A DNA stretch of 64,000 nt from an uncultured Trueperaceae bacterium (GTDB lineage: Bacteria; Deinococcota; Deinococci; Deinococcales; Trueperaceae). Made by a program: the position numbers and the translations under genes. Below are positions 12,805-39,242 of the stretch, piece by piece. Within the stretch, counting starts at the first letter, position 1. Each line of letters begins with the position of its first letter. The stretch covers positions 608,001-672,000 of the forward strand of contig CAWFFU010000011.1 of assembly GCA_963815215.1 (NCBI GenBank), read 5' to 3'. Under the pieces are notes generated by a model. It was not told the DNA's origin. It worked only from the letters and a program-made list of their open reading frames with translations, and did not search any database.

Positions 12805-13994
<1,190 letters not shown>

Positions 13995-19842: not shown

Positions 19843-20841
19843 ATGCACCTGGCGCGGTTCCCGCGACGCCGTTACACGCCCCAGCCCACGCCGATCGAGC
19901 CGCTCGACCGGCTCAGCGAACACCTGGGCGGCCCCAACCTGTTCATCAAGCGCGACGACCAGCTCGGGCTCACGGCCGGCGGCAACAAGACCCGCAAGCT
20001 CGAGTTCCTGGTCGCCGAGGCGCTGGCACAGGGCGCCGACACCCTCATCACCACCGGCGCCGTGCAGTCCAACCACTGCCGGCTGACCCTGGCCGCCGCC
20101 GTCCACGAGGGGTTGAAGTGCCGCCTGGTGCTGGAGGAGAGGGTACCGGGCAGCTACGACCCGGGCGCCAGCGGGAACAACTTCCTGTATCGCCTGCTGG
20201 GCGTCGAGTCCATCACCGTGGTCGAGGGCGGCACCGACCTGATGGCCGCCATGCGGCGCGAGGCCGAGACGCTCGACGCCGAGGGGCGCCGCGGCTACGT
20301 CATCCCCGGCGGCGGCTCCACTCCGCTGGGCGCACTGGGGTACGTGGCCTGCGCCGAGGAGCTGCTGTCGCAGACCTTCGACATGGGCTTGCGGCTCGAC
20401 CACATCGTGAGCGCCAGCGGCAGCGGCGGAACGCACGCCGGCCTGGTGGCGGGGGTCTGGGGCGCCAACGCCAACATCCCCATCACCGGCATCAGCGTGC
20501 GGGCACAGAAGGCGGCGCAGGAGGAGCGCATCCTGACGCTGGCGCGCCGCACCGCGGAGCTCGCCGGCGTGAATGTCGAGGTACCGCCCGAGTCGGTGAC
20601 CGTGCTCGACGACTACGTGGGGCCCGGCTACTCCCTGCCCACGGACGCCATGATCGAGGCCGTGAAGCTGTTCGCCTCGCTGGAGGGCATCCTGCTCGAT
20701 CCGGTCTACACCGGCAAGGCGGCCGCGGGGCTGATCGACCTGGTGCGGCGCGGCCGCTTCGAGCGTGACGACAACGTCCTGTTCCTGCACACCGGCGGCG
20801 CCCCCGCCCTCTACGCCTACCAGGACGTACTGCTGGGATGA
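19843..20841 (+). CDS. PLP-dependent D-cysteine desulfhydrase family protein, probable D-cysteate sulfo-lyase (CuyA-like)
   Basis: KRDD...GGNKTRKLEF, QSNHCR, PGGGS, DPVYTGK, LHTGG; followed by a racemase and an SlcC-like gene; TATGAT at 19777 and GGAG RBS. Confidence 0.85.
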   Translation: MHLARFPRRRYTPQPTPIEPLDRLSEHLGGPNLFIKRDDQLGLTAGGNKTRKLEFLVAEALAQGADTLITTGAVQSNHCRLTLAAAVHEGLKCRLVLEERVPGSYDPGASGNNFLYRLLGVESITVVEGGTDLMAAMRREAETLDAEGRRGYVIPGGGSTPLGALGYVACAEELLSQTFDMGLRLDHIVSASGSGGTHAGLVAGVWGANANIPITGISVRAQKAAQEERILTLARRTAELAGVNVEVPPESVTVLDDYVGPGYSLPTDAMIEAVKLFASLEGILLDPVYTGKAAAGLIDLVRRGRFERDDNVLFLHTGGAPALYAYQDVLLG

Positions 20842-21596
20842 ACGGCTCCCCCGACAGCGGGCGACGCCGGACGGTGGGGGTGCTCGGTGGACTGGGTCCC
20901 GAAGCCACCCTCGACTTCTTCGCCAAGGTGCTGCAGCGCACCCCCGCCGCGAGCGACCAGGAGCACCTGCACCTGCTGATCGACAACGACCCGTCGGTCC
21001 CCAACCGCAACGATGCGGTGGCGGGTCGAGGCCCCTCGCCGGCACCGCAGCTCGCCGCCATGGCGCGGCGCCTCGAGGGCGCCGGGGCCGACTTCCTGGT
21101 GATGGTCTGTAACGCCGCCCACGCCTTCCAGAGCGCGATCGTGGAGGCCGTCGACATACCCTTCGTCAGCATCGTCGAGGAGACGGTCGAGGCCACCCTG
21201 ACGCGCGCGCCGTCGGCACGCCGCGTCGGCGTCCTGGCGGCCGAGGGCGCCCTCGACGCCGGCCTGTACCAGCGCGCCTTCGCGGCGCGGGGGGTGACGG
21301 CGCTCGTGCCCGAGGGGGACGACCGGGCGCGGTTCATGGATGGGATGTACCGCATCAAGGCAGGCGACAAGGGCGAGGCGGTCCAGCGCGACATGCTCGG
21401 CCTGGCACGCGTCCTGCAGGGAGCCGGCGCCGAAGCGCTGGTGGCCGGCTGCACCGAGGTCCCGCTGGTGCTGACGCAGGCGGCGCTCGACGCCGCCGGG
21501 ACGGCGCTGCCGTTCGTCGCCTCGACCGACGCGCTGGTCGAGGCGACGGTGGCGCTGGCGCTGGGAGAGCGGGCCCTGCCGGGAACACGGCCGTGA
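20838..21596 (+). CDS. Asp/Glu racemase family protein, probable cysteate racemase (CuyB-like)
   Basis: GGLGPEAT and both catalytic cysteines (CNAAH, GCTEVP); ATGA-coupled to the lyase. Confidence 0.85.
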   Translation: MNGSPDSGRRRTVGVLGGLGPEATLDFFAKVLQRTPAASDQEHLHLLIDNDPSVPNRNDAVAGRGPSPAPQLAAMARRLEGAGADFLVMVCNAAHAFQSAIVEAVDIPFVSIVEETVEATLTRAPSARRVGVLAAEGALDAGLYQRAFAARGVTALVPEGDDRARFMDGMYRIKAGDKGEAVQRDMLGLARVLQGAGAEALVAGCTEVPLVLTQAALDAAGTALPFVASTDALVEATVALALGERALPGTRP

Positions 21597-22570
21597 GCCG
21601 CATCGCACACCGCAGCGCACACCGCATCGTGGTGGCGGAGTTCCTGCCGGAAGCGGCCCTGGCCCTGCTGCGCGAGGCCGGCGAGGTGGTCGGCGGGCCG
21701 GACCTGCACGCGCGCCGGCCCGAGCTGCTCGAGCTCCTCCACGACGCCGAGGCCCTGGTGGTGCGCAATCAGACGCGCGTCGACACGCATCTGCTCGAGG
21801 GCGCGCCGCGACTGCGCGTGGTCGGCCGGGTGGGCACCGGGCTCGACAACTTCGAGCTCGCCGCGCTACGCGAGCGCGGGGTGACCCTCACATACTCCCC
21901 GGGCGCCAACGCCGCCAGCGTGGCGGAGTACGTGATGGGAGCGGTGCTCACCGTCTACCGGCGCTTCGTGCCTGTGGCGGCCGCCGTGGCCGCCGGCGGT
22001 TGGGACCGCCAGGCCGCCACCGGACGCGAGTTGGTCGGCGGGGTGATGGGCATCGTGGGGCTGGGCGACATCGGCGCGCGCGTCGCTCGGCGGGCGCGCG
22101 CCTTCGGCATGACGGTCGTCGCCACCGATCCCTACCTGCACGAGGCCAGCCCTGCGGTGCAGGAGAACGGCGTCACGCTGCTCCCCCTCGAGGCGCTGCT
22201 CGAACGCTCGGACGTGGTCACGCTCCACTCACCGCTCTCCCCCGCCACCCGTCATCTGCTGGGCGAGGAGCAGCTGGCCCTCATGAGGCCCGGGTCCCTG
22301 CTCGTCAACACCGGTCGCGGCGGGTTGCTGGACGAACCGGCGCTGGCCCGCGCGCTGCGCCGCGGCCGGCCGGCCGCGGCCGTGCTCGACGTGCGCGATC
22401 CCGAGCCTCCGGGCGAGGACGACCCTCTGCGCGGGGCACCGAACCTGCTGGTGACACCCCACGTGGCGGGCGTCACCGAGCAGGCGCTCGAGCGCGGCGC
22501 CTGCCACGTGGCCCGCGACGTGGTCCGTGTCCTGTCGGGCCGACCGCCCGTCAGCGCCGTCCCTACCTAG
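21593..22570 (+). CDS. D-isomer-specific 2-hydroxyacid dehydrogenase, (S)-sulfolactate dehydrogenase SlcC-like
   Basis: IVVAEFL, ALVVRNQTRVD, GRVGTGLDN, GANAASVAEYV, GLGDIG, NTGRGG, TPHVAGVT; no ACT domain, unlike typical SerA. Confidence 0.8.
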   Translation: MSRIAHRSAHRIVVAEFLPEAALALLREAGEVVGGPDLHARRPELLELLHDAEALVVRNQTRVDTHLLEGAPRLRVVGRVGTGLDNFELAALRERGVTLTYSPGANAASVAEYVMGAVLTVYRRFVPVAAAVAAGGWDRQAATGRELVGGVMGIVGLGDIGARVARRARAFGMTVVATDPYLHEASPAVQENGVTLLPLEALLERSDVVTLHSPLSPATRHLLGEEQLALMRPGSLLVNTGRGGLLDEPALARALRRGRPAAAVLDVRDPEPPGEDDPLRGAPNLLVTPHVAGVTEQALERGACHVARDVVRVLSGRPPVSAVPT

Positions 22571-22651
22571 CCGGGCGCGCCGCGCTCCGCGGGTGCCCTC
22601 CGGGCGCGTCTCCCATGATTCTCAGCGCTTCCGGGCCCAGTTCTCCCCGTC

Positions 22652-22704
22652 ATGGACGCATTGCGTCCATTTCATTGACTTGCATGACGCAAAACTCCTA
22701 TGAT
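22652..22704 (+). promoter_or_regulatory. Sigma70-type promoter with upstream inverted repeat
   Basis: TTGACT(22675-22680)-N18-TATGAT(22699-22704); perfect 9-1-9 repeat ATGGACGCA-T-TGCGTCCAT at 22652-22670. Confidence 0.65.
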
Positions 22705-22769
22705 GTGAGGCGCCTGAAAAGTCATGCACACGGGAGGATGGGCCTTCGCGCAAGCGGGTCCGGCCTTGG

Positions 22770-23288
22770 ATGAGAATAGGGACGTATCACCAGCTCGACC
22801 GCATCGACCAGCAGATCGTCGATCTGCTGCGCACGGACGGACGCATGCCCTACCGCGAGATCGCCCGCCGCCTGTCGGTCTCCGAGTCGATGGTGCGCAA
22901 GCGCGCCGGCAAGCTCCTGGAGTCCGGTTGGATGCGGATCCTCGCCATCAGCGACCCCCTCAAGCTAGGGGTCCCTATCGTTGCCACCACCTACGCCAGC
23001 GTCAGTCCGAACGTGCTGGAGGAGGTGACCGACGCACTGGCCCGCAATGAGGCGGTCCGCTACCTGGCCATCGGCGTAGGCAGCCGCAACCTGGTCGTCG
23101 AGTCGCTCCACGCCTCGGTCGAGGACGTGCACGCCTTCATCCAGAACGAGTTGGGAAGGGAGGGAGTCTACGAGAGCGAGACCATCCACGTGGTGAAGAT
23201 CAAGAAGAGCGTATGGGACTGGCCCATGCCGACCGAGTCCGACGACAGCGCAACGACCCCGAATCCGGAACGGAGAGACGACACATGA
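22770..23288 (+). CDS. Lrp/AsnC-family transcriptional regulator
   Basis: LDRIDQQIVDLLRTDGRMPYREIARRLSVSESMVRKR HTH followed by a RAM-like domain. Confidence 0.9.
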   Translation: MRIGTYHQLDRIDQQIVDLLRTDGRMPYREIARRLSVSESMVRKRAGKLLESGWMRILAISDPLKLGVPIVATTYASVSPNVLEEVTDALARNEAVRYLAIGVGSRNLVVESLHASVEDVHAFIQNELGREGVYESETIHVVKIKKSVWDWPMPTESDDSATTPNPERRDDT

Positions 23289-24790
23289 AACGCTTGACCC
23301 TGACCCTCGGCCTGCTCGCGATGCTGGCCGCCGCCGGCATGGGCTTCGCCCAGAAGAGCGGTGGCACCCTGATCGCAGCCTGGGCCCAAGACCCGGTGAG
23401 CCTGGACCCGCAGGTCACCAGCGCCTACTCGAGCTTCCAGGTCCTGGAGAACGTGCTCGACACCCTGGTGGCGCTCGATCAGCAGGACAAGATCGTGCCG
23501 TCGCTGGCCACCAGCTGGGAGTCCTCGGCCGACGGCCTCACCTGGACCTTCCATCTGCGCCACGACGTCAAGTTCAGCAACGGCCGTCCGATGACGGCGC
23601 AGGACGTCGTCTACACCTACGACCGCATGCTCGACCCCAAGACCGGCTCCGGCAACGCCTACCTGCTGGCCGGCGTCGAGAAGGTCACGGCGCCCGACGA
23701 CTACACCGTGCAGTTCCAGCTCAAGGCGCCCAATGTCGCCCTGCTCGGCCATCTTGCGGTCAACAAGTCCGTCGGCATCATCGCCAAGGAGTCGGTCCAG
23801 AACGGCACCATCAAGACCCAGCCGATCGGCACCGGCCCGTTCATGATCTCCGACTTCGAACCGGGCAACAAGGTCGTGCTGAAGAAGAATCCCTACTACT
23901 GGAAGCCGGGCCTGCCCTACCTCGACGAGGTCGACATCAAGATCATCACCGACGAGTCGGTGCGGCAGACGGGCCTGCTCGCCGGTGACATCGACTGGGC
24001 CATCAGTGTGCCGCCGCAGAGCCTGGACCAGCTCCAGAACGCACAGGGCGTGGTAGTGGACAAGACCACGGCGGGCGCGTACTGGTATATCGGCGTCAAC
24101 CTCAACAACCAGTACCTCAAGAACCCCAAGGTCCGCGAGGCCATCAACTACGCCATCAACCGCAAGGACATCACCACCGCGATGACGTTCGGCACGGGCG
24201 AGCCCACCCAGGACCCCATCCCGTCGTCGAGCGCCTGGGCCTACAACTATGCCCCCTACAGCTACGACCCCGGCAAGGCCAAGCAGTTGCTGGCCGACGC
24301 CGGCTACCCCAACGGCTTCCGCATGATGATCATGCCCACCACGCAGTACCCGGAGTCGGTCCGTGGCGCCCAGGTGATCCAGCAGAATCTCGGCCAGATC
24401 GGCATCAAGGTGACCATCAAGACGCTGGAGTGGGCGCAGTGGCTGCAGGAGGAAGGCAAGGGCAACTACGACACCTACGTGTGCTCGTGGAACGGCCTCG
24501 TCGACCCCGACGACTACTTCTACGCGCAGCAGAAGACCGGCGAGGTCTTCAACTTCACGGGCTACAGCAACACCAAGGTCGATCAGCTGCTCTCCGAGGG
24601 CCGCAAGACGCAGGGCTTCGACCAGCGCAAGGCGATCTACCAGCAGGTCAACAAGATGGTGGTGGACGACGCTCCGTACATCTACATGTACAACCCCGCC
24701 AACATCAACGCCTACCGCTCCTACGTCAAGGGCTACGCTGCCCGCCCCGACCAGGCGGTGAACTTCACCCAGACCTGGCTCGACAAGTGA
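23285..24790 (+). CDS. Dpp/Opp-family ABC substrate-binding protein
   Basis: Signal peptide, GGTL, SLDP, PSLATSW, IGTGPF, VREAINYAINR. Confidence 0.9.
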   Translation: MKRLTLTLGLLAMLAAAGMGFAQKSGGTLIAAWAQDPVSLDPQVTSAYSSFQVLENVLDTLVALDQQDKIVPSLATSWESSADGLTWTFHLRHDVKFSNGRPMTAQDVVYTYDRMLDPKTGSGNAYLLAGVEKVTAPDDYTVQFQLKAPNVALLGHLAVNKSVGIIAKESVQNGTIKTQPIGTGPFMISDFEPGNKVVLKKNPYYWKPGLPYLDEVDIKIITDESVRQTGLLAGDIDWAISVPPQSLDQLQNAQGVVVDKTTAGAYWYIGVNLNNQYLKNPKVREAINYAINRKDITTAMTFGTGEPTQDPIPSSSAWAYNYAPYSYDPGKAKQLLADAGYPNGFRMMIMPTTQYPESVRGAQVIQQNLGQIGIKVTIKTLEWAQWLQEEGKGNYDTYVCSWNGLVDPDDYFYAQQKTGEVFNFTGYSNTKVDQLLSEGRKTQGFDQRKAIYQQVNKMVVDDAPYIYMYNPANINAYRSYVKGYAARPDQAVNFTQTWLDK

Positions 24791-24825
24791 GCGCGGCTCG
24801 CTGAGCCCCGTTCCACGAGCTCCGA

Positions 24826-24853
24826 GCGGGAGGCGGCGCGGGCCGCCTCCCGC
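24826..24853 (+). terminator. Stem-loop after the SBP gene
   Basis: 12-bp perfect stem GCGGGAGGCGGC-GCGG-GCCGCCTCCCGC. Confidence 0.5.
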
Positions 24854-24892: not shown

Positions 24893-25843
24893 GTGAGCCT
24901 TCGCTATCTTCTGCAACGGTTGGGCACGTTGCTGCTGGTGCTGTTCGGGGTGTCGATCCTGACCTTCTCGATCATCCCGCTGGTGCCGGGCAGCCCGGCC
25001 CGCGTCACACTGGGCGTGCAGGCCACCGACGCGTCGGTGGCAGCGCTCGAGCACAGCATGGGCCTCGACCGCCCGCTCCCCGCCCAGTACTGGAGTTGGG
25101 TCACCGGAATCGTGCTGCACGGCGACTTCGGAAAGAGCTTGATCAGCGGCAAGCCGATCACGGAGCAGGTGCGCCACCGCCTGCCGGCCACCCTGATCCT
25201 GGCCTTCACCGCGCTCCTGATCGGCCTGCTCATCGCCGTCCCCAGCGGCATCGTCTCGGCCCTACGGCCCGGCAGCGCGCGCGACCTGGGGGTCTCCTTG
25301 ATGAGCCAGATCGGCGTGTCGATCCCGGACTTCTGGCTCGGTATCCTGCTCATCCTGCTCTTCGCCCAGGTCCTCCACTGGTTGCCCTCGAGCGGCTACG
25401 CCCCGCTCTCCGAAGGGCTGGGCGCCTATCTCAGGCACATCCTCCTGCCCGCCGCCACCGCCGGCGTCATCAGCGGCTCGATCATGGCGCGCTTCGTGCG
25501 CTCGGCCATGATGGAAGTGCTCGGCAACGACTACGTGCGGACGGCTCGAGCCAAGGGTCTGGACCCGCGCCGCGTCATCGGCAAGCACGTGCTCCGCAAC
25601 GCCGCCATCACCATCGTCACCATCGTCGGGCTGCAGATGGCGACGCTGCTGTCGTCGGTGGTGGTGGTGGAGATCATCTTCGCCTGGCCGGGCCTGGGCT
25701 CGATGGCCCTGACCGCCACCCTCCAGCGCGACTATCCCGTGCTACAGGCGTCGGTGCTGCTGTTCGCCACCTCCTTCGCGGTCATCAACCTGCTGACCGA
25801 CCTCTCCTACGTGCTGCTCGACCCGAGCGTGGAGTACGCATGA
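24893..25843 (+). CDS. Dpp/Opp-family ABC permease (DppB-like)
   Basis: GDFGKS, IPDFWLG, DYVRTARAKGL, EIIFAWPGLG, RDYPVLQ. Confidence 0.9.
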   Translation: MSLRYLLQRLGTLLLVLFGVSILTFSIIPLVPGSPARVTLGVQATDASVAALEHSMGLDRPLPAQYWSWVTGIVLHGDFGKSLISGKPITEQVRHRLPATLILAFTALLIGLLIAVPSGIVSALRPGSARDLGVSLMSQIGVSIPDFWLGILLILLFAQVLHWLPSSGYAPLSEGLGAYLRHILLPAATAGVISGSIMARFVRSAMMEVLGNDYVRTARAKGLDPRRVIGKHVLRNAAITIVTIVGLQMATLLSSVVVVEIIFAWPGLGSMALTATLQRDYPVLQASVLLFATSFAVINLLTDLSYVLLDPSVEYA

Positions 25844-25854
25844 GAGGTACACCA

Positions 25855-26745
25855 ATGAGCGACGCCGTCGTCGCCACCGCACCGGACGCCCTCGGCACCG
25901 AGGAGGCCACCGTCCGCCGCTCGCTGGTGAGGCGCGCCCTGCGCCACCCGCTGGTCGTCACCGGCAGCATCGTGGTGCTGGCGTTGGCCGTCGTCGCCGT
26001 GTTCGGCCACTGGCTCGCGCCCTTCGATCCGACCGCCATGGACTTCGCCGCGCGCTTCGCGCCGCCCTCGCTGGCACACCCCTTCGGCACCGATGATTTC
26101 GGTCGCGACGTCTTGTCACGCGTGCTCTACGGTGCGGCGGTGTCGTTCGAGGTGGCGTTCATCGCCGTCGGCATCTCCGGCACCGTGGGGGTGCTGCTCG
26201 GCCTGCTGGCCGGCTTCCTGGGGGGCTGGATCGACGAGCTGGTCATGCGCGTGATGGACATCCTGTTCGCGTTCCCCGCCGTCCTGCTGGCCATCACCGT
26301 GATGGCCATCCTGGGGCGCGGCGTGGGCAACGCCATGATCGCCATCGCCATCGTCTACATCCCCATCTTCGCGCGCGTCACGCGCGGGGCGGTCATCGGC
26401 GTGCGCGGTCGGGAGTTCGTGACCGCCGCCCGCGCCATGGGTCAGGGGCCGTGGCGGATCATGCTGAGGCACGTCCTTCCCAACGCGCTGGGGCCCATCA
26501 TCGTGCAGACCTCCCTGAGCCTCGCGTTCGCCATCCTGGCGGAAGCTGCGCTGTCGTTCTTCGGCCTCGGCACCCAACCGCCGGCGCCGAGCTGGGGACG
26601 CATGCTCTCCGAGGGACGCTCCTTCCTCCATCAGGCCCCGTGGATGGGCATCTTCCCGGGCCTGGCCATCATGGTGTCGGTACTCGGCTTCAACCTCCTC
26701 GGCGACGGCCTGCGCGACGTTCTCGATCCGCGCTCGAATCGTTGA
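25855..26745 (+). CDS. Dpp/Opp-family ABC permease (DppC-like); alternative start 25840
   Basis: HPFGTDDFGRD, QPPAPSWG, GDGLRDVLDPR. Confidence 0.9.
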   Translation: MSDAVVATAPDALGTEEATVRRSLVRRALRHPLVVTGSIVVLALAVVAVFGHWLAPFDPTAMDFAARFAPPSLAHPFGTDDFGRDVLSRVLYGAAVSFEVAFIAVGISGTVGVLLGLLAGFLGGWIDELVMRVMDILFAFPAVLLAITVMAILGRGVGNAMIAIAIVYIPIFARVTRGAVIGVRGREFVTAARAMGQGPWRIMLRHVLPNALGPIIVQTSLSLAFAILAEAALSFFGLGTQPPAPSWGRMLSEGRSFLHQAPWMGIFPGLAIMVSVLGFNLLGDGLRDVLDPRSNR

Positions 26746-30100: not shown

Positions 30101-30167
30101 ACCGCGCCCTCTCCGCGCGGGGCCGGGTCGCCGCGGACCTCGGCGCGGACCTCGGCGCGGACCTCTG
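30046..30167. repeat. Two short tandem-repeat arrays at the junction of the Gfo genes
   Basis: 15-bp GCCGGCTCACACCGT x3 (third ends in C) plus one degenerate copy (30046-30105); 12-bp CGCGGACCTCGG x3 (30132-30167, last imperfect). Confidence 0.85.
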
Positions 30168-31179: not shown

Positions 31180-32243
31180 GGCAGGTACCTCCGGTGCCAG
31201 CCCTCCCCGGCACCCTCCATCGCGGGCGCGCCGCGATAGCGGCGGTGGTCGTACCACGGCAACGCGGCATCGGCCCGAGCCGAGATGGCACGGAGGTACG
31301 GTAGTGCGCGCGCCCGCAGCCGCTGCTCGACCGCCGCCGCGTCAGGGTAGGCCTCGAGGGCCTCCAACCACACCGCGCGGCCGGCCAGGAAACCGCTCGC
31401 GCCGGCGTCGAACGCGAGTTCGAGGTCGGCTTCGAATTCGGCGCGCCCGACGCCCGCGCTCAGCAGCACCCAGGGCGCGGGGCAGGCATCATCGAGCTCC
31501 GCCAGGAAGCCGCGCACCTCATCCACGGAGTAGAGGGCGGGACGCTCGCGACCGTCGAAAGCGCCGCCGTGATAGCCGCGGCAGTGCTTGAGGTCGGCAG
31601 GGAACTCTAGCTTGAAGATGTCCACCCCGAAGCGCGGCTCGGCGAAGCGCCGAACGGACGCGAGGACGCGCTCGGGCCGGCGCGCCTGGTACTCCGGCGA
31701 GGTCGCGTCCTCGCCCTTCCCCGGGTAGACCAGCAGCTCCAGGATGAACGGGATGTCGCTCGCACGGCAGGCCTCGCCCACCTCCGCAACCAGCCGCTCC
31801 TGATGCGCGCGCGTCGCTTCCGAGGTGTCGGGACGATACCAGGCCAGCAGCTTGACGCCGGACGCCCCTGCGCGCTTGATGGCCGCGACGCTCCACCCCT
31901 CGATGAGCCTGGAGCGACGCTCGCCGTCGACCACCTCGAACCCGTAGTCCTCGAGCGTGCCGATCAGCGCCGTGCTGCCGGGAACGGCCGACAGCGCGGT
32001 GGCGTGCGTCCAGACGGGATCGATGAGGATCGCACCCGCCTCGGGAGCCAGCACCCGGGTGAGGAGCGCCTTGGCGGCAGCCACCTCGTCGAAGCTCAGG
32101 CTCTGCGGGTCCCGGTCGCCGGCGCGCGCCAGCGCCTGGAACAGTGGCGGCCGCTGATCGACCGCCACCATACGGAACACGCCGTCGTCGTCGGCGAGCG
32201 TCATCATCGCGCGCAACTTGCCGGCACTCAGGACCTCGCTCAT
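31176..32243 (-). CDS. Class I LacD/YihT-family aldolase (candidate sulfofructose-1-phosphate aldolase)
   Basis: MVAVDQR, AILIDP, GVKLL, PFILE, VDIFKLEFP, PWVLLSAGV, GASGFLAGRAVW. Confidence 0.85.
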   Translation of the reverse strand: MSEVLSAGKLRAMMTLADDDGVFRMVAVDQRPPLFQALARAGDRDPQSLSFDEVAAAKALLTRVLAPEAGAILIDPVWTHATALSAVPGSTALIGTLEDYGFEVVDGERRSRLIEGWSVAAIKRAGASGVKLLAWYRPDTSEATRAHQERLVAEVGEACRASDIPFILELLVYPGKGEDATSPEYQARRPERVLASVRRFAEPRFGVDIFKLEFPADLKHCRGYHGGAFDGRERPALYSVDEVRGFLAELDDACPAPWVLLSAGVGRAEFEADLELAFDAGASGFLAGRAVWLEALEAYPDAAAVEQRLRARALPYLRAISARADAALPWYDHRRYRGAPAMEGAGEGWHRRYLP

Positions 32244-32312: not shown

Positions 32313-33248
32313 TCAGCGCGGGGACGTGCCGGCGTCCGGGCGCACGCCCCCCGTCCCGGTGGCAGCGCGGAAGGCGACCACCTCATCGTGACCGGGCAGA
32401 CCGGCGCGCGCCCCGAAGGAACGGCACGCCATCGCCGCGGCAGTGGCCGCGTAGCGGGCCGCCTCCTCTGCGCCCTCGCGCCGTGCGATGGCGGCGGCGT
32501 ATGCCCCGTGGAACACGTCGCCCGCGCCGGTGGTGTCCAGCGCCTCGACGCGCGGGGCGGGGACGTGCGTGGCGCGCTCACCCTCCAGCAGCAGCACCCC
32601 CTCCGCCCCCAGCGTGATCCCCACCACCTGGCCGGGGCGTCGCCGCAGGTGCGGCAACGCCGCCTCGGGGTCGTCCCGGCCGATCAACTCCTGCGCGCAC
32701 TCGCGCGCCACCAGCAGGTGGTCGGCCAGTACGGCGTCCTCCCAGTGGCGGAGGTTGCCGTAATCGGCGACGACGGGGATCTCGTCGGCGCGGGCGGCCT
32801 CGGCAGCAGCGCGGCACAGCCGAGGATGCCTCAGGTCGACGAGCACGGCCCCGGCCCCTTCGAGGAAGCCGGGGGGCAGACGGGCGGGATCGTCCTCGAG
32901 CCCACTGCCGCGGAAGGGGAAGATCCAGCGTTCCCCGTCGGGCGCCACCAGCACGGCGCTGACGAACGTGCGCGCGCCTGGGAGACGGCGCACGCCGGAG
33001 ACGTCCACCCCGTGCGCCTCGAGGTCTTCGAGGGCGGTGGCGCCGGCGGCGTCGTCGCCGTGGAGCGCCACCAGCGCGGCAGCCACCCCGAGGTGCGCGG
33101 CCGCTGCGGCGGCCGTAGCGGCCGGCCCGCCCCCCTGCGTCCGGAAGGCCGTGGCATCGGTACGCGAATGCGCCGGCGGGAAGCGCTCGACCCGCCACAC
33201 GTGATCCAGACACGACAGCCCGACGCACACCACGCGCGGACCCCTCAC
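32313..33248 (-). CDS. PfkB-family sugar kinase, sulfofructose kinase YihV-like
   Basis: VVCVG..CLD, GGGPAATAA, SAVLVAPDGER, VLVDLR, DTTGAGDVFHGAY. Confidence 0.85.
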   Translation of the reverse strand: MRGPRVVCVGLSCLDHVWRVERFPPAHSRTDATAFRTQGGGPAATAAAAAAHLGVAAALVALHGDDAAGATALEDLEAHGVDVSGVRRLPGARTFVSAVLVAPDGERWIFPFRGSGLEDDPARLPPGFLEGAGAVLVDLRHPRLCRAAAEAARADEIPVVADYGNLRHWEDAVLADHLLVARECAQELIGRDDPEAALPHLRRRPGQVVGITLGAEGVLLLEGERATHVPAPRVEALDTTGAGDVFHGAYAAAIARREGAEEAARYAATAAAMACRSFGARAGLPGHDEVVAFRAATGTGGVRPDAGTSPR

Positions 33249-34648
33249 GATCGCAGGTAGGGCGCCGGGGGCAGCGCCGGCAGGACGTCAGCACCGAGGT
33301 AGGCGCACAACTCGTAGAGCGCGTCGACCCTGTCGCCGCGACCGAAAGCGAGGTGGTGCGGCAACCGCCGGTCGAGCAGGTTGGCGACGAAGGCGCGCAC
33401 GTTGACGGGGCTCTCACCCCAGCGCAGCCCGCCGATCCAACCGCGGACGCCGTCGTACCCCGCCTTCTCCGTCCGCCCGACCTCGCCGCCGACGATGACG
33501 GCGCGACGACCGGAGCTCAGCAGGCGGAACCCGGTCACGGGACCGGCTCGCAGGCGCATGTCGCGCACGACGCCGGTACCGTCGCGATTGAAGTGCGTGG
33601 TGAGACGGGTGTCGGGGCTGCCCGAGGGTCCCGGCGCCGCCCACGCCACGGGCGCGTTGCCGCAGTGCCAGACCTGGAGGGTGTCGTCGGTGTCGTCCGC
33701 GTCGGAGAGATCCATGAGGATGGCGGGGTCGCCGCTGACGCCCTGCAGCGCCAGCATCGACAGCGCCCCCATCACGTCCCCCTCGCAGGCGGCGGGCACC
33801 TCACGGCCGCTCGAGTCCCCCATCGCAGCGCACGCCATCGAGCCGCAGGTCTCCGCCACCTCTGGCCAGCACCGCACGGCCAGCGCCGTCGCTCCCGCCT
33901 CCTCGGCCAGGCTCTCGAGGGCGGCGTCGATGCGCGCGCCCCGGACGAGCTGCTCGAACGTCACGTCCGTGCGCTCGCGGTCCTGCCAGACGCGAGCGCG
34001 CGCCTCGGCCTCAGCGTCAGGCACCGCCGCCACGCGCTCGAACAGCGCCGCCAGATCGCGCGCGACGACCTCGACTCCGACGAGGTCGGGCGCCTCTTGC
34101 AGTCCGTAGAAGCCCGGCGCGGTACCCCCGATCGCCAGGATGCGGGCGCTCCGCACCGCGGCCAGGCCGCGGAGCGCGCCTACCGTGGCCGCCAACCGCC
34201 GCACGAACTCGGGGTCATCTGGCAGCCCGTAGAACCACTTGACGGGTCCGGACTTGGCCACCTGCGGCGCGTCCAGCAGCGAGAGCGTCATGTTGAGGCC
34301 ACACAGCGAGTTGAGCGGCAGCGGCCCCTCGCTCCAACCGCCCACGCGCTCCGGCACACCCCACAGCCCGACCCGCTCGGTGGCCGCGAGCAGCGGGGCG
34401 ACCACGTCGCCGGTCGCGAAGGTGGTGAGCTGCACCAGCAGGTAGTCGAGGCGCTCTTCGGCGAGCACGCGCGCCGCACGCGCGGCCTCGGGCGCGTCGC
34501 GTACCGCCCGCTCGGACGCCACCAGCTCGAACCCGAGCCGATCTGCGAGCTTCCCCAGACCGTCGAGGCTGAGGCGCGCCGCTGCGGCGGCGTCCCCCTT
34601 GAAGGCGGGCCGCGTCACCGAGACGAACCCGATGCGGGGTCGGATCAT
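33245..34648 (-). CDS. L-fucose/L-arabinose isomerase-like protein, sulfoquinovose isomerase SqvD/SftI-like
   Basis: R..F, TTFA, LNSLCG, APGF, AVRCWP, CEGD..GALSM, MDL, WHCG, HFNR, PHH, in the order I recall for SqvD-type isomerases. Confidence 0.78.
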   Translation of the reverse strand: MIRPRIGFVSVTRPAFKGDAAAAARLSLDGLGKLADRLGFELVASERAVRDAPEAARAARVLAEERLDYLLVQLTTFATGDVVAPLLAATERVGLWGVPERVGGWSEGPLPLNSLCGLNMTLSLLDAPQVAKSGPVKWFYGLPDDPEFVRRLAATVGALRGLAAVRSARILAIGGTAPGFYGLQEAPDLVGVEVVARDLAALFERVAAVPDAEAEARARVWQDRERTDVTFEQLVRGARIDAALESLAEEAGATALAVRCWPEVAETCGSMACAAMGDSSGREVPAACEGDVMGALSMLALQGVSGDPAILMDLSDADDTDDTLQVWHCGNAPVAWAAPGPSGSPDTRLTTHFNRDGTGVVRDMRLRAGPVTGFRLLSSGRRAVIVGGEVGRTEKAGYDGVRGWIGGLRWGESPVNVRAFVANLLDRRLPHHLAFGRGDRVDALYELCAYLGADVLPALPPAPYLRS

Positions 34649-34655
34649 GATTGGA

Positions 34656-35585
34656 TCATCCCTTCACGCCTCCGGCGGTGAGACCGCTGATGATGCGCTG
34701 CTGGAAGAACAGGATCAGCAGCACCAGAGGCACGATGCCGATCGTGACGGCTGCGCTGATCAGGGCCCAGGGGAAGGCGAACTCGCCCTGGTACAAGGTG
34801 ATGCCCACGGGCACGGTGCGCATGGTCGTGGCGGTGTTGAACGTCAAGGCCAGCAGGAACTCGTTCCAGGAGTTCACGAACGCGATGATGCCGGCGGTCA
34901 CGACCCCCGGCGCCGAGAGCGGCGCCACCACGCGGAACAGCGCCCCCACGCGGCTGGTGCCGTCGACGGTGGCGGCGGCCTCCAGGTCCTCCGGGATGAG
35001 CTGGAAGAAGCTGGTCAGGATGAGCGTGGTGATCGGCAGGCTCAGCGCAACGTAGGGGATGATCAGCGCCCAGTAGGTGTTGAGCAGGTTGGGCGTCATC
35101 AACGTGGTGGGCAGGAAGCCCCAACCTAGCGCGTGCAGGTACCCGAACAACGGCGTCAGCAAGGGCACCTCGACGCCCACGAACAGACGGTACAGCGGCA
35201 CCAGCATCACCAGCGCCGGGAACATGCTGGTCATCACGATGGAGGTGAGGATCGCCCGGCGGCCGCGCAATCTGAGCCGCGCGAGCGCGTAGCCGGCCAG
35301 CGAGGCGAACAGCACGCATACCAACGTGGCCGCCAGCGACACCACGGCGGAGTTCAGGAGGAAGCGGCCGAAGGGGTTCTCGGTGAAGACCGATCCGTAG
35401 TTGTGGAGCGTGGCGTGCAGAGGAAGGTAGGTGATGGGGATGCGGGTCAGCTCGTTCTCGGACTTCAGCGACGTGAGGAACAGCCATACCGCCGGGAACA
35501 GCCCGTTGACGATCATCAGCAGCAGTCCGAGTCGCACCACCACGTAGCGCACGCGTCGACGGGGTCCTCTCGCGGGGGCCGTCAT
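34656..35585 (-). CDS. Carbohydrate ABC permease (MalG-type)
   Basis: LAGYALAR, IPEDLEAAATVDG (EAA), SWNEFL, FQQRIISGLTAGGVKG. Confidence 0.9.
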   Translation of the reverse strand: MTAPARGPRRRVRYVVVRLGLLLMIVNGLFPAVWLFLTSLKSENELTRIPITYLPLHATLHNYGSVFTENPFGRFLLNSAVVSLAATLVCVLFASLAGYALARLRLRGRRAILTSIVMTSMFPALVMLVPLYRLFVGVEVPLLTPLFGYLHALGWGFLPTTLMTPNLLNTYWALIIPYVALSLPITTLILTSFFQLIPEDLEAAATVDGTSRVGALFRVVAPLSAPGVVTAGIIAFVNSWNEFLLALTFNTATTMRTVPVGITLYQGEFAFPWALISAAVTIGIVPLVLLILFFQQRIISGLTAGGVKG

Positions 35586-36703
35586 TCGGTGTAGATCCAT
35601 CGCAGGTAGAAGACCGTGATCGCCAGACTGATCAGGAACAGCACCACCGACAGCGCCGCGGCATAGCCGATGTTGAGCGCCAGCGTCGAGTTGTAGATGT
35701 ACACCCCCAGGGTCTCCAGGCTGCGACCGGGGCCGCCGCGGGTCATGGCGAAGGGGATGTCGAAGGTCTGGATAGCGGTGAGCGTACGGAAGATGAGGGC
35801 CACGGCGATCGACGGACGCAGCAGCGGAAGGGTGATGCGCCAGAAGCGCTGCCAGGCGTTGGCGCCGTCGACCACCGCTGCCTCGTAGAGGCTGGCGTCG
35901 ATCGACTGCAGGCCGGCGAGCAGGATGAGCCCCACGAACGAGGAGGTCTTCCACACGATCGTGATGTTGACCGCCGCGATCGCCGGCGAAACCCGCGCCA
36001 GCCACAACGGCCCGTGCAAGCCGATGCGGCCCAGCAGGTCGTTGATCACGCCGTACTGGCTCTGGAACAACCAGGCGAAGGTGAGGCCGGCGAAGACGCG
36101 CGGCATCGCCCACGGCAGCAGCAGCGCCACTCTGCCGAGCCACCGCAAGCGGGACTCGACGTTCGCCAGGAGCGCCAGCGGCAGGCCGGCGACGAAGGAG
36201 CCGACCACGCTGACCACGATGATCAGCATGGTGATCGAGAAGGAGTTCCAGAAGCGGCCGTCGGTCCAGCGACCACCGGCGCCCGGATGGAACCCCAGCA
36301 GGTAGGCGAACAGCAGCACCATCAGCAGGCCCAGCACGGTGCCGGAGAGGCGACCGATCCAACGCCGACGCACGGCCCACAGCAGCGGGGCCAACGCGGC
36401 CAGCCCCAGCAACCGCAGCCACAGCAGGTGCGAAGCATTCCAGATCAGCCCTTCACCCCAGAGCATGCGCCGGAAGTTGCCGAGGCCGATGAAGGGCGTG
36501 CCCCGGAAGGGCTGGTTGAGCCGGTTGAAGTGCAGCGATTGCCACAGCACGGTGAGCATGGGATAGAGCATGACCGCGGCCAGCGTCAGCAGAGCCGGCA
36601 GCAGCAACAGCACGGCGAGCTGCCCGTCGGACAGGTTGCCGGTGCGCAGCCGGCGCCAGAAGCCCGGCCTGCGGTAGGGGGTGGTGGGAACGGTGCGAGC
36701 CAT
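35582..36703 (-). CDS. Carbohydrate ABC permease (MalF-type)
   Basis: FIGLGNF, LLPWAMP, LAGLQSID..LYEAAVVDGA, TRGGPG. Confidence 0.9.
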   Translation of the reverse strand: MARTVPTTPYRRPGFWRRLRTGNLSDGQLAVLLLLPALLTLAAVMLYPMLTVLWQSLHFNRLNQPFRGTPFIGLGNFRRMLWGEGLIWNASHLLWLRLLGLAALAPLLWAVRRRWIGRLSGTVLGLLMVLLFAYLLGFHPGAGGRWTDGRFWNSFSITMLIIVVSVVGSFVAGLPLALLANVESRLRWLGRVALLLPWAMPRVFAGLTFAWLFQSQYGVINDLLGRIGLHGPLWLARVSPAIAAVNITIVWKTSSFVGLILLAGLQSIDASLYEAAVVDGANAWQRFWRITLPLLRPSIAVALIFRTLTAIQTFDIPFAMTRGGPGRSLETLGVYIYNSTLALNIGYAAALSVVLFLISLAITVFYLRWIYTE

Positions 36704-36777
36704 GGAAGATAGGGGAGGCAAGATCGGGTGGGGCGCCGCGCGAACGCCCCACCCCTGGATCGACGCCTTCGCCGAGC

Positions 36778-38043
36778 CTACTGCGAGAGGATGTCCTGCA
36801 GGCCGGTCTGCATCTTCTGCAGGGCCTGGTCGGCCGTCATCGAGCGCGCGAAGAAGGCATTCATGGTGGTGCGGATGAGGTCGCTGACGTCAGGGTAGAG
36901 CGGCGTCACCGGCCGCGGCCGGGCGTTGATGATGACGTCGTAGAAGTCGGCGTACTGCGGGGCCGTGGCGAGCACGGCCGGGTCCTTGTACAGCGCCTTG
37001 CGCGCCGGGATGTTGCTGGCCTTCACCGCCAGCGTGCGCTGGCTGTCCTCGTTGGCCAGGAAGCGCATGAGCTTGAAGGCGTCCTGCTTGTGCGCGCTGT
37101 AGGGGTTCATCGCCCACTGCCAGCCGCCCACGCAGGTAGCGGAGGTGTGGCCTTGGAAGGCGGGCAGCGGCGCCACCCCGACCTTGCCCTTGACGGCGGT
37201 GTCGGCGTCGCTCTGGAAGTGCGCCCAGGCATAGCCCCAGTTCAGCATGAACACCACGTCACCGGACTGGAACATCTTGCGCGAGGTGTCGGTGGCGACC
37301 TCGGCGATGTTGGGGATGGTGATGCCCGAAGAGAGCGTCTGGTCGTACCAGTCGAGCGCCTGCTTGCCGGCCGCCGTGTTGATGGTGATGTTCCCGTTGG
37401 CGTCGCGCCAGTTGCCGCCGGCCGTCCACAGCGCCTCGAGGAACGTGCAGTTGGTGCCCTCGATGGCGGCGCCCTGGTAGTTGAAGCCCTGCAGGTTGGG
37501 GTTGTTCTCCCCCTTCATGATCGTCAGGGCCTGGTTCTTGAGCTCCTCCCAGGTCTTGGGCGGCTGGAAGCCGTACTTGTCGAGCAGGTCCTTGCGGTAG
37601 TACAGGAACTGCGCGTCGGTGAAGGCAGGGATGGCATACAGCTTGCCGTTCACCGTGTCGGCGTTGATGGGGCCCGGAAGGAACGACGCCAGGTAGGTCT
37701 TCTCAGCGTCGGCGGAGGCGAAGTAGCTGTCGAGCGGCTCGGCCCATCCCGACGCCGCGTACTGCGCGGGGCGCACCACGTCGACGAGCATGACGTCGAT
37801 GGCCGAGGACTTGCTGGTCAACACGGTGCTGAGGTACTGCTGCTGCACGTCGCTTGTCGCGCCGCCCACCTCGAAGGTGGCGTGGATGTCGGGGTTCTCG
37901 GCGTTGAACTTGTCGAGCAAGGGTCCGATGACATCGGGCCGCTGCTGGCCGCCGATGAAGACCTTGAGGTTCACCTGGGCGGCGCCGGTCGCGAACAGCG
38001 CAGCGAACGCCAGGGCGAGCAGGACGCGGATGGGTCGGTTCAT
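36778..38043 (-). CDS. Carbohydrate ABC substrate-binding protein, sulfoquinovose-binding SmoF-like
   Basis: GGATS.VQQQYL.TV, DVVRPAQ, PAF.D..FLYYRKDLL, QG.AIEG..CTFL, EVATD..RK.FQ.G, NW.YAW.HFQ, TC.GGW, RPVTP, which align with the Agrobacterium SmoF sequence as I recall it. Confidence 0.85.
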   Translation of the reverse strand: MNRPIRVLLALAFAALFATGAAQVNLKVFIGGQQRPDVIGPLLDKFNAENPDIHATFEVGGATSDVQQQYLSTVLTSKSSAIDVMLVDVVRPAQYAASGWAEPLDSYFASADAEKTYLASFLPGPINADTVNGKLYAIPAFTDAQFLYYRKDLLDKYGFQPPKTWEELKNQALTIMKGENNPNLQGFNYQGAAIEGTNCTFLEALWTAGGNWRDANGNITINTAAGKQALDWYDQTLSSGITIPNIAEVATDTSRKMFQSGDVVFMLNWGYAWAHFQSDADTAVKGKVGVAPLPAFQGHTSATCVGGWQWAMNPYSAHKQDAFKLMRFLANEDSQRTLAVKASNIPARKALYKDPAVLATAPQYADFYDVIINARPRPVTPLYPDVSDLIRTTMNAFFARSMTADQALQKMQTGLQDILSQ

Positions 38044-38090
38044 GGATACCTCCGGAATCGTGTTGGGTGGTTGGCGAACGGACGGGTCGT

Positions 38091-39125
38091 CTACGCAGGC
38101 GGCACCTCCATCAGGGCAGGGGGACCTGTGCTGTCGCGGACGATGAGCTGGGTCGCCAGACGCGCCGACGGGACGGTACCGCCGGCCATCAGGGTGAGGA
38201 GCGCGTCGAAGGCCATCTCGCCCAGGCGACGCGTCGGTTGCCGGACCGTGGTGAGCGCCGGGCTGGCCACCGCGGCCAGCGGTGTGTCGTCGAAGCCGAC
38301 GACGGACACGTCGCCCGGCACACGGCGGCCCGCCGCCACGAGAGCGCTCAAGGCGCCCAGCGCCACCAGGTCGTTGTTGCCGAGAACGGCGTCGAAGGGC
38401 GTCGCGCCGGCGAGCAGGCGCGCGCAAGCGGCGGCGCCGCCCGTCTTGCTGTCGTCGGTCGGCGCGAGCAGCTCGGGGTCGGCCTCCAGACCGAAGGTCT
38501 CGACGCCGGTACGGTAGGCGCGGATGCGACGCTCGGCGTAGCGTGAGCCGCGGGGACCGCTCAGGAAGGCCACCCGACGCAGGCCGAGTTGGTGCAGGTG
38601 CGCCAGCGCCTGCCACACCCCGGCACGCTCGTTGCTTCCGATACTCACGGCCTGGAGTGTGCGCGGACCGGCATGGATGGCCACCACCGGGTAGTGGGCG
38701 GCGATCAACCGGTTGAGGCCCTCGACGTCCTCGTCGGCTACGCTCGAACCGAGCACGAGCAGGCCGTCGACCCGCCCCTCGCGTAGCCACAGGGTGAAGT
38801 CGGGGCGGGGCGCGGTCGAGAGCAACAGCGGGAAGCCCGCCTCCTCGGCCCGGCCGGTGACGCCGAGCAGCAGCTCGTTGAAGTAGGGGTTGGCGAACAC
38901 CAGCTCGGAGCTGCGAGGCAGCATCAGCCCGACGACTTGCGCCTTCCGGCGCGTCAGCGCCCTCGCCGCCGCGTCGGGATGGTACCCCAGCGTGTCGGCG
39001 AGCTCGCGCACACGCGCACGCGTACCGCGTGCGATCTGCGGGTCGTCGCGCAGGGCCCGTGACACGGTCGAGCGAGCCAGTCCCAGCCGTTCGGAGAGGT
39101 CCTTCAGCGTGAGCTTGCGCCTCAC
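38091..39125 (-). CDS. LacI-family transcriptional regulator
   Basis: TLKDLSERLGLARSTVSRAL HTH, GYHPDAAARAL hinge, VPGDVSVVGFDD, LTTVRQP. Confidence 0.93.
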   Translation of the reverse strand: MRRKLTLKDLSERLGLARSTVSRALRDDPQIARGTRARVRELADTLGYHPDAAARALTRRKAQVVGLMLPRSSELVFANPYFNELLLGVTGRAEEAGFPLLLSTAPRPDFTLWLREGRVDGLLVLGSSVADEDVEGLNRLIAAHYPVVAIHAGPRTLQAVSIGSNERAGVWQALAHLHQLGLRRVAFLSGPRGSRYAERRIRAYRTGVETFGLEADPELLAPTDDSKTGGAAACARLLAGATPFDAVLGNNDLVALGALSALVAAGRRVPGDVSVVGFDDTPLAAVASPALTTVRQPTRRLGEMAFDALLTLMAGGTVPSARLATQLIVRDSTGPPALMEVPPA

Positions 39126-39196
39126 GAATGACCGCCCGCCTCCCCGCCCCCGGGCGCATCGCGATGCGCGGCCAGAGGGCGATTCGATAGCTTCTA

Positions 39197-39242
39197 CGCA
39201 ACCGGTTGCGGCAACGGTAGCACAGCCCCAGGAGCACCGCAA
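39197..39242 (-). promoter_or_regulatory. Promoter and LacI-type operator of the sugar operon
   Basis: Minus strand TTGCGG(39242-39237)-N17-TACCGT(39219-39214) with an extended TG; perfect palindrome CGCAACCGGTTGCG (39197-39210) over the predicted TSS. Confidence 0.7.

Follow-up and report, generated by a model that had tools for sequence, protein, structure and literature searches.

A conserved Trueperaceae locus that may couple a variant sulfoglycolysis operon to cysteate desulfonation

Can a single bacterium take sulfoquinovose (SQ) all the way to sulfite? About 10 billion tons of this plant sulfosugar are made per year, and in the accepted picture of its breakdown one organism splits SQ and excretes a C3 sulfonate, from which another releases the sulfur. 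The question is raised by a locus of an uncultured Trueperaceae bacterium (Deinococcota), found in a stretch of 64,000 nucleotides that is called the window hereafter (contig CAWFFU010000011.1). In it, a minus-strand operon for the import and cleavage of a sugar (39125-29006) converges on a plus-strand desulfonation block (19843-22570) encoding a predicted cysteate sulfo-lyase (CuyA), a cysteate racemase (CuyB) and a 2-hydroxyacid dehydrogenase. A first-pass annotation of the window had proposed that these two blocks, lying about 6.4 kb apart, convert SQ to sulfite in one cell. The distance was borne out, since 6.4 kb separate the end of the dehydrogenase gene (22570) from the end of the last Gfo/Idh/MocA (Gfo) gene (29006). 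We see an even chance that the minus-strand operon encodes a variant Embden-Meyerhof-type sulfoglycolysis coupled to CuyAB, allowing SQ mineralisation in one cell. The Cuy module, a SmoF-like binding protein, a YihV-like kinase and conserved synteny speak for the proposal; the isomerase, the aldolase and the Gfo enzymes support it less than first assumed, and no operator shared by the two blocks was found.

The G+C content of the window is about 70%, and coding frames were therefore chosen by third-position G+C before family searches were run. Pfam and NCBIfam searches agreed with the families first assigned to both blocks. At the family level, the identity of the Cuy module is secure. The predicted pyridoxal phosphate-dependent D-cysteate sulfo-lyase CuyA (19843-20841, plus strand; Pfam PALP) scored 534.4 bits against the NCBIfam equivalog NF052482 (cut-off 450), and the D-cysteine desulfhydrase and 1-aminocyclopropane-1-carboxylate deaminase models all scored under their cut-offs for this protein. 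The predicted cysteate racemase CuyB (20838-21596, plus strand; Pfam Asp_Glu_race), whose gene overlaps the stop codon of cuyA, reached 263.1 bits against NF052483 (equivalog cut-off 190), so that both names given in the first-pass annotation hold. CuyB and CuyA are described as specific for D-cysteate (PMC11193023). The third gene (21593-22570, plus strand; Pfam 2-Hacid_dh) encodes a 2-hydroxyacid dehydrogenase of the short SerA clade, and the overlap of stop and start codons across the three genes indicates one operon. The dehydrogenase has 325 aa and no ACT domain, scored 264 bits against the phosphoglycerate dehydrogenase (PGDH) model TIGR01327, under its cut-off of 454, and found its best PDB match in the short PGDH 1wwk (222 bits). 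Aligned to 1wwk, it retains both substrate-anion arginines, in the SerA "Arg-Ser" motif (here Arg-Asn) and in the GRxGxGxDN loop. It is a paralogue, a full-length SerA above the cut-off being encoded elsewhere in the genome. The characterised (S)-sulfolactate dehydrogenase SlcC has been placed in or beside the SERA clade, and 3-sulfolactate mimics 3-phosphoglycerate (PMC6303947). Because of this placement of SlcC, and because translation of this SerA-like paralogue is coupled to that of CuyB, the most plausible role of the enzyme is the SlcC-like interconversion of sulfolactate and sulfopyruvate. The SlcC-like role first proposed, which is putative, is supported by clade and by anion-binding arginines.

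The assignment of the sugar operon to SQ, which we regard as probable, is based mainly on its binding protein and its neighbourhood. The binding protein of the CUT1-type ATP-binding cassette (ABC) importer (36778-38043, minus strand; SBP_bac_1) carries a signal peptide, and its start and Shine-Dalgarno sequence were located in the sequence. Its best PDB match was SmoF (7nbz; 377 bits, E 1e-111), the sulfoquinovosyl-glycerol binding protein of Agrobacterium (PMC8940949), 120 bits ahead of the next one, a trehalose/maltose-binding protein (257 bits). The residues reported to contact SQ in SmoF are Gln12, His13, Ser43, Asp67, Asp113, Gly166, Thr220, Trp276 and Arg345 (PMC8940949), and eight of these nine are identical here, only His13 being changed to Gln, which places the protein in the SmoF type. 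In the trehalose/maltose-binding protein, Glu stands in place of Thr220. Among 23 orthologues the two Asp, the Gly, the Thr and the Arg of the pocket were found in every one (23/23 each), and at the position of Gln12, 15 orthologues have Gln, 6 have Arg and 2 have Thr. In the SmoF study, the authors caution that SQ-binding proteins are poorly predicted from sequence alone and that most putative ones are without the SmoF pocket (PMC8940949). It is because of this rarity of the pocket that its conservation is informative here, and the protein is probably a binder of SQ or sulfoquinovosyl-glycerol. Two permease genes follow, one MalF/UgpA-like (35582-36721, minus strand; Pfam BPD_transp_1, NCBIfam UgpA-like) and one MalG-like (34656-35585, minus strand; BPD_transp_1, 56 bits), the frame and start of the latter being set by the third-position G+C profile. 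The longest ATG open reading frame (ORF) at this place, 34645-35487, was rejected as a wrong frame, given that profile and the BPD_transp_1 match to 34656-35585.

The PfkB-family sugar kinase (32313-33248, minus strand; Pfam and PDB matches) is also in keeping with a sulfosugar. YihV is its best solved relative (7ag6, 137 bits), followed by 2rbc (126 bits) and ribokinase (96 bits), and the identity to Escherichia coli YihV is 35%. YihV binds the sulfonate through a KRN triad of Lys27, Arg138 and Asn109 (PMC8006165). The kinase keeps R138, the catalytic D244, D13 and S95, and has Arg in place of K27.

The neighbourhood was surveyed in 121 genomes of the family, including that of the window and one unpublished genome (G033); the closest public relatives of the locus are metagenome-assembled genomes of Trueperaceae/Deinococcales. 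With a threshold of E 1e-40, the isomerase of the sugar operon was detected in 59 of them; the match was at least 50% identical in 54, and 52 of these 54 genomes with an orthologue also have CuyA. Where isomerase and CuyA lie on one contig (18 genomes), they are less than 20 kb apart in 15 (5-17 kb), spread over 8 genera; genomes in which isomerase and CuyA fall on separate contigs were left out of the count, as were five (G004, G020, G030, G037 and G057) whose only isomerase match was 29-36% identical. The juxtaposition of the two blocks is therefore not due to chance, as the layout is found again in relatives from 8 genera, and the conserved synteny that had been named as a check on the proposal is present. 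Two arrangements were observed. In genera g1, g11, g25, g7 and g10 (layout i), the sugar operon is followed by ORF762-DppC-DppB-SBP5-AsnC and then by dehydrogenase-CuyB-CuyA. In genera g36, g23 and g32 (layout ii), the AsnC/Dpp/ORF762 set is missing and the last Gfo gene directly abuts dehydrogenase-CuyB-CuyA.

The genes farther out are less constant. A deoC gene (18699-19691, minus strand; TIGR00126 145 bits, cut-off 117), a GNAT acetyltransferase gene (18142 to about 18700, minus strand; Pfam GNAT) and a long aldehyde dehydrogenase gene form an operon (15722..19691, minus strand) divergent from cuyA in the window. DeoC, in most cases together with GNAT and the long dehydrogenase, is likewise divergent from CuyA in four other places (L016, G022, G006 and G041), and it lies 5 kb from CuyA in G075. 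The outer genes of the window (GGDEF/EAL, MFS, AlaS, Tdh/Kbl) adjoin the locus in some genera only, and none of them was found in the flanks of about 8 kb compared in G022, G032, G054, G036, G006 and G041. Since the outer flanks differ between genera, the neighbourhood of operon and Cuy block outlasts general synteny. It gives qualitative support for coupling, and only qualitative, because related genomes are not independent. Scans for the isomerase returned 10 loci from genomes and 80 from metagenomes. Every scanned locus with an isomerase of at least 43% identity resembles the operon of the same lineage, so no independent phylum serves as a cross-check. The kinase adjoins the isomerase in 30 of the 42 metagenome loci at 43% identity or more, and neither a kinase nor an aldolase homologue stands beside it in any of the 35 metagenome loci at 36% or less.

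From family membership, conserved ligand-binding residues and the conserved gene neighbourhood we infer the substrates, the oxidation of the aldehyde, the transamination and the co-expression of the blocks. The SmoF-type binding protein and the two permeases would import SQ or its glycerol glycoside, and the two Gfo/Idh/MocA enzymes would have a putative accessory redox role and may free SQ from the glycoside. An isomerase of the fucose isomerase superfamily would convert SQ to sulfofructose, the YihV-like PfkB kinase would phosphorylate this to sulfofructose-1-phosphate, and a LacD-type class I aldolase would split the product into dihydroxyacetone phosphate (DHAP) and sulfolactaldehyde (SLA). 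An aldehyde dehydrogenase, either the neighbouring ALDH16-type enzyme or a GabD-like one encoded elsewhere, would oxidise SLA to sulfolactate. In the facing operon, the SlcC-like dehydrogenase would then give sulfopyruvate, a housekeeping aminotransferase would yield cysteate, and after racemisation by CuyB, CuyA would release pyruvate, ammonium and sulfite. We find arguments for and against complete mineralisation of SQ in one cell about equally strong, and a route specifically through CuyA somewhat doubtful. It is unlikely, though conceivable, that Trueperaceae mineralise SQ in one cell without oxygenolysis, with a hybrid sulfo-EMP pathway feeding SLA through sulfolactate, sulfopyruvate and cysteate to CuyAB, ALDH16 as the missing SLA dehydrogenase and the Gfo pair as a new NAD-dependent pair that cleaves or epimerises sulfoquinovosides.

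A number of observations weigh against one-cell mineralisation of SQ by this locus; they concern the sugar enzymes, the glycoside, the linking steps and the control of the two blocks. The 467-aa isomerase (33245-34648, minus strand) matched no Pfam family at E 1e-5 and no PDB sequence. It was placed in the L-fucose/L-arabinose isomerase superfamily by its ESM Atlas neighbours, which belong to the fucose/arabinose isomerase families, and by its sole NCBIfam match, SftI (NF048012), at 122 bits, far under the cut-off of 700. Relatives 25-36% identical to it scored much the same against the SftI model (seven of eight at 135-163 bits, one at 115), and the three annotated distant ones (L017, L018 and L020) lie among genes for ROK regulators, ribose-type ABC transporters, Zn-dehydrogenases, short-chain dehydrogenases/reductases and FGGY kinases. 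Because relatives from clusters without sulfonate genes score as high or higher, the likeness to SftI is a superfamily signal and no evidence for SQ specificity, and an isomerase of the SqvD/SftI type is not supported. As a separate observation, an aldo/keto reductase gene stands directly upstream of the isomerase homologue both at L021:8962-9975 and at L017:8878-9891, in clusters that otherwise differ, one being Trueperaceae-like and the other spirochaetal.

The aldolase (31176-32243, minus strand; Pfam DeoC/LacD PF01791) belongs to the LacD/PRK12858 subfamily of class I (Schiff-base) enzymes. It scored 312 bits (cut-off 184) against NF009498, the PRK12858 "tagatose-bisphosphate aldolase" model, and in the PDB it matched 8tnf (242 bits), LacD (about 137) and YihT (79), so that it is nearer to LacD than to YihT, the type proposed at first. 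It keeps residues equivalent to the Schiff-base Lys193 and to Arg253 of YihT, and with its class I family and conserved Schiff-base Lys it is not a class II enzyme of the SqiA kind. A full-text literature search found no paper related to 8tnf, deposited as a "DUF2090 domain-containing protein", and the literature listing for "DUF2090" held only papers on gap filling in the inositol pathway. Three operons (L016 in G036, L065 and L089) have no LacD-type aldolase between kinase and Gfo1, and in L016 a DeoC-like aldolase still adjoins CuyA. In the kinase, Asn109 of the YihV triad is changed to Pro, and YihV leads 2rbc by only 11 bits.

The two Gfo proteins were considered as candidates for the sulfoquinovosidase SqgA (GH188), which neither sequence nor fold favours. 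Gfo1 (30097-31179, minus strand; Pfam) has EKP and DxxxH motifs, and Gfo2 (29006-30037, minus strand; Pfam) has EKP and ExxxH motifs and a basic loop. In the PDB sequence search, SqgA chains scored 41-51 bits against the two (51 bits at best for Gfo1), compared with 73-85 bits for generic Gfo members. The fold gave the same result. The AlphaFold model of Gfo1 (pLDDT 90) had 4hkt and 3ezy as top Foldseek matches and SqgA at rank 49, and that of Gfo2 (pLDDT 91) had 2glx, a 1,5-anhydro-D-fructose reductase, at the top and no SqgA chain among the matches listed. The models are thus predicted to be nearest to 1,5-anhydrofructose reductase and inositol-dehydrogenase-like structures, and by sequence and fold alike the matches are generic Gfo/Idh/MocA ones with no specific likeness to SqgA. 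SqgA is described with an ExxxH motif and a basic loop, a sulfonate triad of Arg166, Leu170 (backbone) and Lys172, and catalytic Lys107, Tyr136, Glu189, His193 and His321 (PMC10755693); Gfo2 shares the ExxxH motif and the basic loop, at a different spacing. No GH31 enzyme in the genome was named as a sulfoquinovosidase, and its two GH31 genes, considered as YihQ, were rejected as MalA/alpha-xylosidase-like and under the cut-offs of those models. Gfo1 and Gfo2 are separated by a stretch (about 30040-30100) with about four copies of a 15-bp unit, translated as GVSRH-GVSRH-GVSRR where the Gfo2 ORF extends upstream.

The steps that would link the two blocks lack dedicated genes in part. The first-pass annotation saw no recognisable aldehyde dehydrogenase in the window; there is one, encoded at 15722-18145 (minus strand; Pfam Aldedh), and we consider it a candidate SLA dehydrogenase. 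It has 807 aa, its best PDB match is the 767-aa 6mvr (696 bits), which we take to be an ALDH16, and its C-terminal part gives a second, partial Aldedh match, the two-part organisation expected of ALDH16. To our knowledge, ALDH16 is a family with no known substrate. Known SLA dehydrogenases belong to the GabD/succinate-semialdehyde dehydrogenase class, and none of the SlaB/GabD type was found in the locus; a GabD-like enzyme of this class is encoded on another contig and scored 630 bits (cut-off 646). The other gaps listed in the first-pass annotation are real for the locus, which contains no dedicated aminotransferase or exporter, and could be filled in part from the rest of the genome, with 12 matches to the class I/II aminotransferase fold, 6 TauE matches above the cut-off and a SoxC/SorA-like molybdoenzyme scoring under its cut-off. 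As these genes and the GabD-like one lie outside the locus, we infer all of aldehyde oxidation, transamination and sulfite disposal. The only class I/II pyridoxal phosphate fold protein in the window is Kbl, in agreement with the lack of a cysteate aminotransferase noted at first. Kbl passes the glycine C-acetyltransferase equivalog cut-off and was rejected as a cysteate aminotransferase, as was Tdh as an SLA dehydrogenase, since it passes that of threonine dehydrogenase. The Tdh-Kbl pair (11761-14063, minus strand), both above equivalog cut-offs, is unrelated to the sulfonate finding.

The control of the two blocks appears to be separate. The sugar operon starts with a LacI-family repressor gene (38091-39125, minus strand; Pfam LacI, Peripla_BP_1 and Peripla_BP_3; start read from the sequence), and a perfect 14-bp palindrome, CGCAACCGGTTGCG, a probable LacI operator, lies at 39197..39210, ahead of the LacI start by 72-85 bp. 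The window has a single copy without mismatch; the 11 other matches, all at 3 mismatches, do not exceed the number seen in shuffles. Each of 12 orthologous loci likewise has one copy, upstream of LacI. Around CuyA none was found, either in the window or in those orthologous loci that contain CuyA. A shared operator linking both blocks was therefore rejected, as the palindrome is solely upstream of LacI. The Cuy block is followed by a regulator and an importer of its own, which occupy the 6.4-kb gap and are co-directional with it: AsnC/Lrp (22770-23288), an SBP_bac_5 binding protein (23213-24790) and two Dpp-type permeases (24893-25843 and about 25849-26745), all on the plus strand and identified by Pfam and NCBIfam. 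With the LacI operator confined to the sugar operon and an AsnC-type regulator on the Cuy side, the arrangement argues against a single regulon, and sequential induction is possible. No RNA run was present among the 20 public runs listed with sequence words of the locus. Two public DNA runs hold at least half of the sampled words, one from a soil and one from a sediment metagenome, and one of them may be the sample behind the assembly of the window. The rest of the gap is taken by ORF762 (26764-29052, plus strand), a conserved ORF for a 762-aa polytopic membrane protein with about 12 hydrophobic segments, which matched no Pfam family and has a weakly spermidine-synthase-like centre, as have its ESM Atlas neighbours. 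It shares the last 47 bp at its 3' end with the convergent Gfo2 gene, and in the genomes with layout (i) it sits between DppC and the last Gfo gene at 44-96% identity. Directly upstream of LacI, a 1757-aa signalling protein (7TM, GAF, PAS, GGDEF and EAL; 39270-44543, minus strand) is retained at this place only in genera g1 and g11. Elsewhere in the window, at 52434-59321, lie a tripartite ATP-independent periplasmic transporter (DctQ, DctM and a divergent DctP) and a phosphonate-type ABC transporter.

A second possible route to sulfite exists on the same genome. A putative sulfolactate module at C11:541.9-552.9 kb (L136:3969-14854), 56-66 kb upstream of the window, encodes a GntR regulator, a PGDH-like 2-hydroxyacid dehydrogenase, and a SAF small and a GD_AH large subunit that together make a split UxaA-type lyase, with a Gfo oxidoreductase, a TctA/TctC transporter and a divergent SsuABC-like transporter. 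The suyAB-slcC-slcHFG cluster of Chromohalobacter salexigens is said to have a similar layout. Many relatives of the large subunit are labelled "(2R)-sulfolactate sulfo-lyase subunit beta" by JGI, automatically, and UxaA family hydrolase by NCBI. The gene of this SuyB-like subunit was found in 9 of the 121 genomes, all of the genus of the window, to which the module may provide a SuyAB route.

How far do these observations favour other explanations? The sugar operon could act on a neutral or modified sugar (a 6-deoxyhexose, a ketose or a polyol) rather than on SQ, through the common sequence of isomerase, 1-kinase and aldolase, with the Gfo enzymes oxidising a polyol or epimerising the sugar. 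This would agree with an isomerase no closer to SftI than its relatives from polyol clusters, with an aldolase of the LacD/PRK12858 type, with Gfo enzymes nearest to inositol and anhydrofructose oxidoreductases, and with the near-equal match of the kinase to 2rbc, a sugar kinase whose substrate is not stated. The caution of the SmoF authors (PMC8940949) also applies; however, it rests on pockets that are not conserved, whereas here Gln/Arg, Ser, Gly, Thr and all four hydroxyl contacts are. Given this pocket, the Arg of the kinase at the position of the sulfonate-binding Arg138 and the presence of C3-sulfonate genes beside the locus in 8 genera, we think a sugar other than SQ unlikely. Another explanation is that the blocks are sulfonate modules independent of each other and adjacent by coincidence. 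With the sugar operon, the cell would degrade SQ no further than to SLA, sulfolactate or 2,3-dihydroxypropane-1-sulfonate and excrete this product, as most sulfoglycolytic bacteria do, and the Cuy operon with AsnC and the Dpp-type importer would serve external cysteate, sulfolactate, an amino-sulfonate or a peptide. The separate regulators, the importer after the Cuy block and the lack of an SlaB/GabD-type dehydrogenase in the locus are all as expected from independence. So is the distribution of CuyA: of the 121 genomes, 103 have CuyA and 59 the isomerase, and CuyA is present in 51 of the 67 that lack an isomerase orthologue. This indicates that the Cuy block has a life of its own. In three genomes the isomerase and CuyA are far apart (1.7 Mb in G003, 0.31 Mb in G038 and 45 kb in G104).

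Yet the two blocks remain adjacent in 8 genera whose outer flanks differ, the operon directly abuts a Cuy block without Dpp and AsnC in layout (ii), and nearly all genomes with the operon have CuyA. Moreover, a cell that makes sulfolactate and has a route from sulfolactate to sulfite would be expected to use it. Independence of the modules is, for these reasons, rather improbable to us, though not strikingly so. Within the coupled reading, the Cuy block of genus g10 (G075 and G118; L034-L037), where CuyB is directly followed by AsnC with no dehydrogenase, is at odds with a strict requirement for this dehydrogenase. The C3 sulfonate could, finally, be desulfonated mainly by the SuyAB-type sulfo-lyase rather than by CuyA, as the gene content of the upstream module and the JGI labels suggest. 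But the JGI name is automatic and differs from that of NCBI, no (R)-sulfolactate dehydrogenase of the ComC type was seen in the cluster, and since the module is confined to one genus it cannot explain the neighbourhood of operon and Cuy block in the other 7 genera. A main flux through SuyAB is thus unlikely, and it would leave room for CuyA acting in parallel.

Coupling of a variant sulfoglycolysis to CuyAB would combine features of several known systems. Two Embden-Meyerhof-Parnas (EMP)-type SQ pathways are described in a 2026 review, sulfo-EMP (YihS, YihV, YihT) and sulfo-EMP2 (SqvD, SqiK and the class II SqiA) (PMC12890257). By its predicted families, the enzyme set of the window fits neither of them, as it joins an isomerase of the fucose isomerase superfamily to a YihV-like kinase and a LacD-like class I aldolase. 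With the sulfo-EMP pathway of E. coli and Arthrobacter it would share the logic of isomerase, 1-kinase and class I aldolase leading to DHAP and SLA, and its aldolase falls in the same DeoC/LacD family as YihT, with the Schiff-base Lys and Arg253 kept. As reported for Arthrobacter (PMC8873060), the cluster has an ABC importer and no GH31 sulfoquinovosidase. Unlike in sulfo-EMP, the isomerase is not of the YihS type, the aldolase is LacD-like (79 bits to YihT), and the cluster has two Gfo genes and neither YihU nor a GabD-type SLA dehydrogenase. The likeness to the sulfo-EMP2 pathway of Firmicutes lies in the fucose-isomerase-like isomerase (there SqvD, of the SftI family) and in the same proposed intermediates. 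It is limited by the distance of the isomerase from the 700-bit SftI cut-off (122 bits) and by the aldolase, which is of class I, whereas SqiA is a metal-dependent class II enzyme (PMC10665668).

Precedents exist for joining sulfosugar cleavage and desulfonation. Predicted actinobacterial clusters with GH188 "Tyr-variants" contain a fucose isomerase, a sulfofructose kinase, a sulfofructose phosphate aldolase, an ABC transporter and a regulator, together with a Gfo-fold enzyme, an SLA dehydrogenase, a "D-3-phosphoglycerate dehydrogenase" and SuyAB (PMC11465081). They resemble the window in placing sulfoglycolysis and desulfonation at one locus, in both cases predicted from genes alone; in contrast to their SuyAB and recognised GH188 SqgA, the window has CuyA/CuyB and Gfo proteins of putative role. 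The suggestion in the first-pass annotation that this layout had not been described is qualified by these predicted sulfo-EMP-like clusters with SuyAB. Paracoccus wurundjeri couples an Entner-Doudoroff (ED) pathway for sulfofucose to SlcC/ComC-SuyAB, as shown experimentally, with an SLA dehydrogenase that was not identified (PMC12421959). It is like the window in that a single organism is proposed for sulfosugar cleavage and sulfite release (here from genes alone), and differs in its substrate sulfofucose, its ED-type cleavage and its SuyAB lyase. For the downstream part, the CuyB-CuyA system of Bilophila wadsworthia (PMC11193023) also has CuyB adjoining CuyA, and the same chemistry is proposed here. 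The window differs from this system and from that of Roseovarius nubinhibens in that its cuyAB operon includes a soluble SlcC-like dehydrogenase and lies beside a sulfosugar operon, and in that its CuyA has no adjacent CuyZ/TauE exporter or RidA. In R. nubinhibens, sulfolactate reportedly passes via sulfopyruvate and cysteate to CuyA.

According to a 2026 review, complete SQ catabolism by one organism had not been demonstrated outside oxygenolytic routes (PMC13436972), and the pathway table of the other review does not include Deinococcota (PMC12890257). Among the literature matches listed, none linked SQ catabolism to Deinococcota by its title or the start of its abstract. The locus would thus bring a phylum not yet linked to SQ metabolism into this field, through a new combination of known kinds of system. 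It offers a candidate SLA dehydrogenase that is not of the SlaB/GabD type and, with it, a candidate function for ALDH16. Conserved in at least 8 genera of Trueperaceae, it is a testable candidate for SQ mineralisation in one cell.

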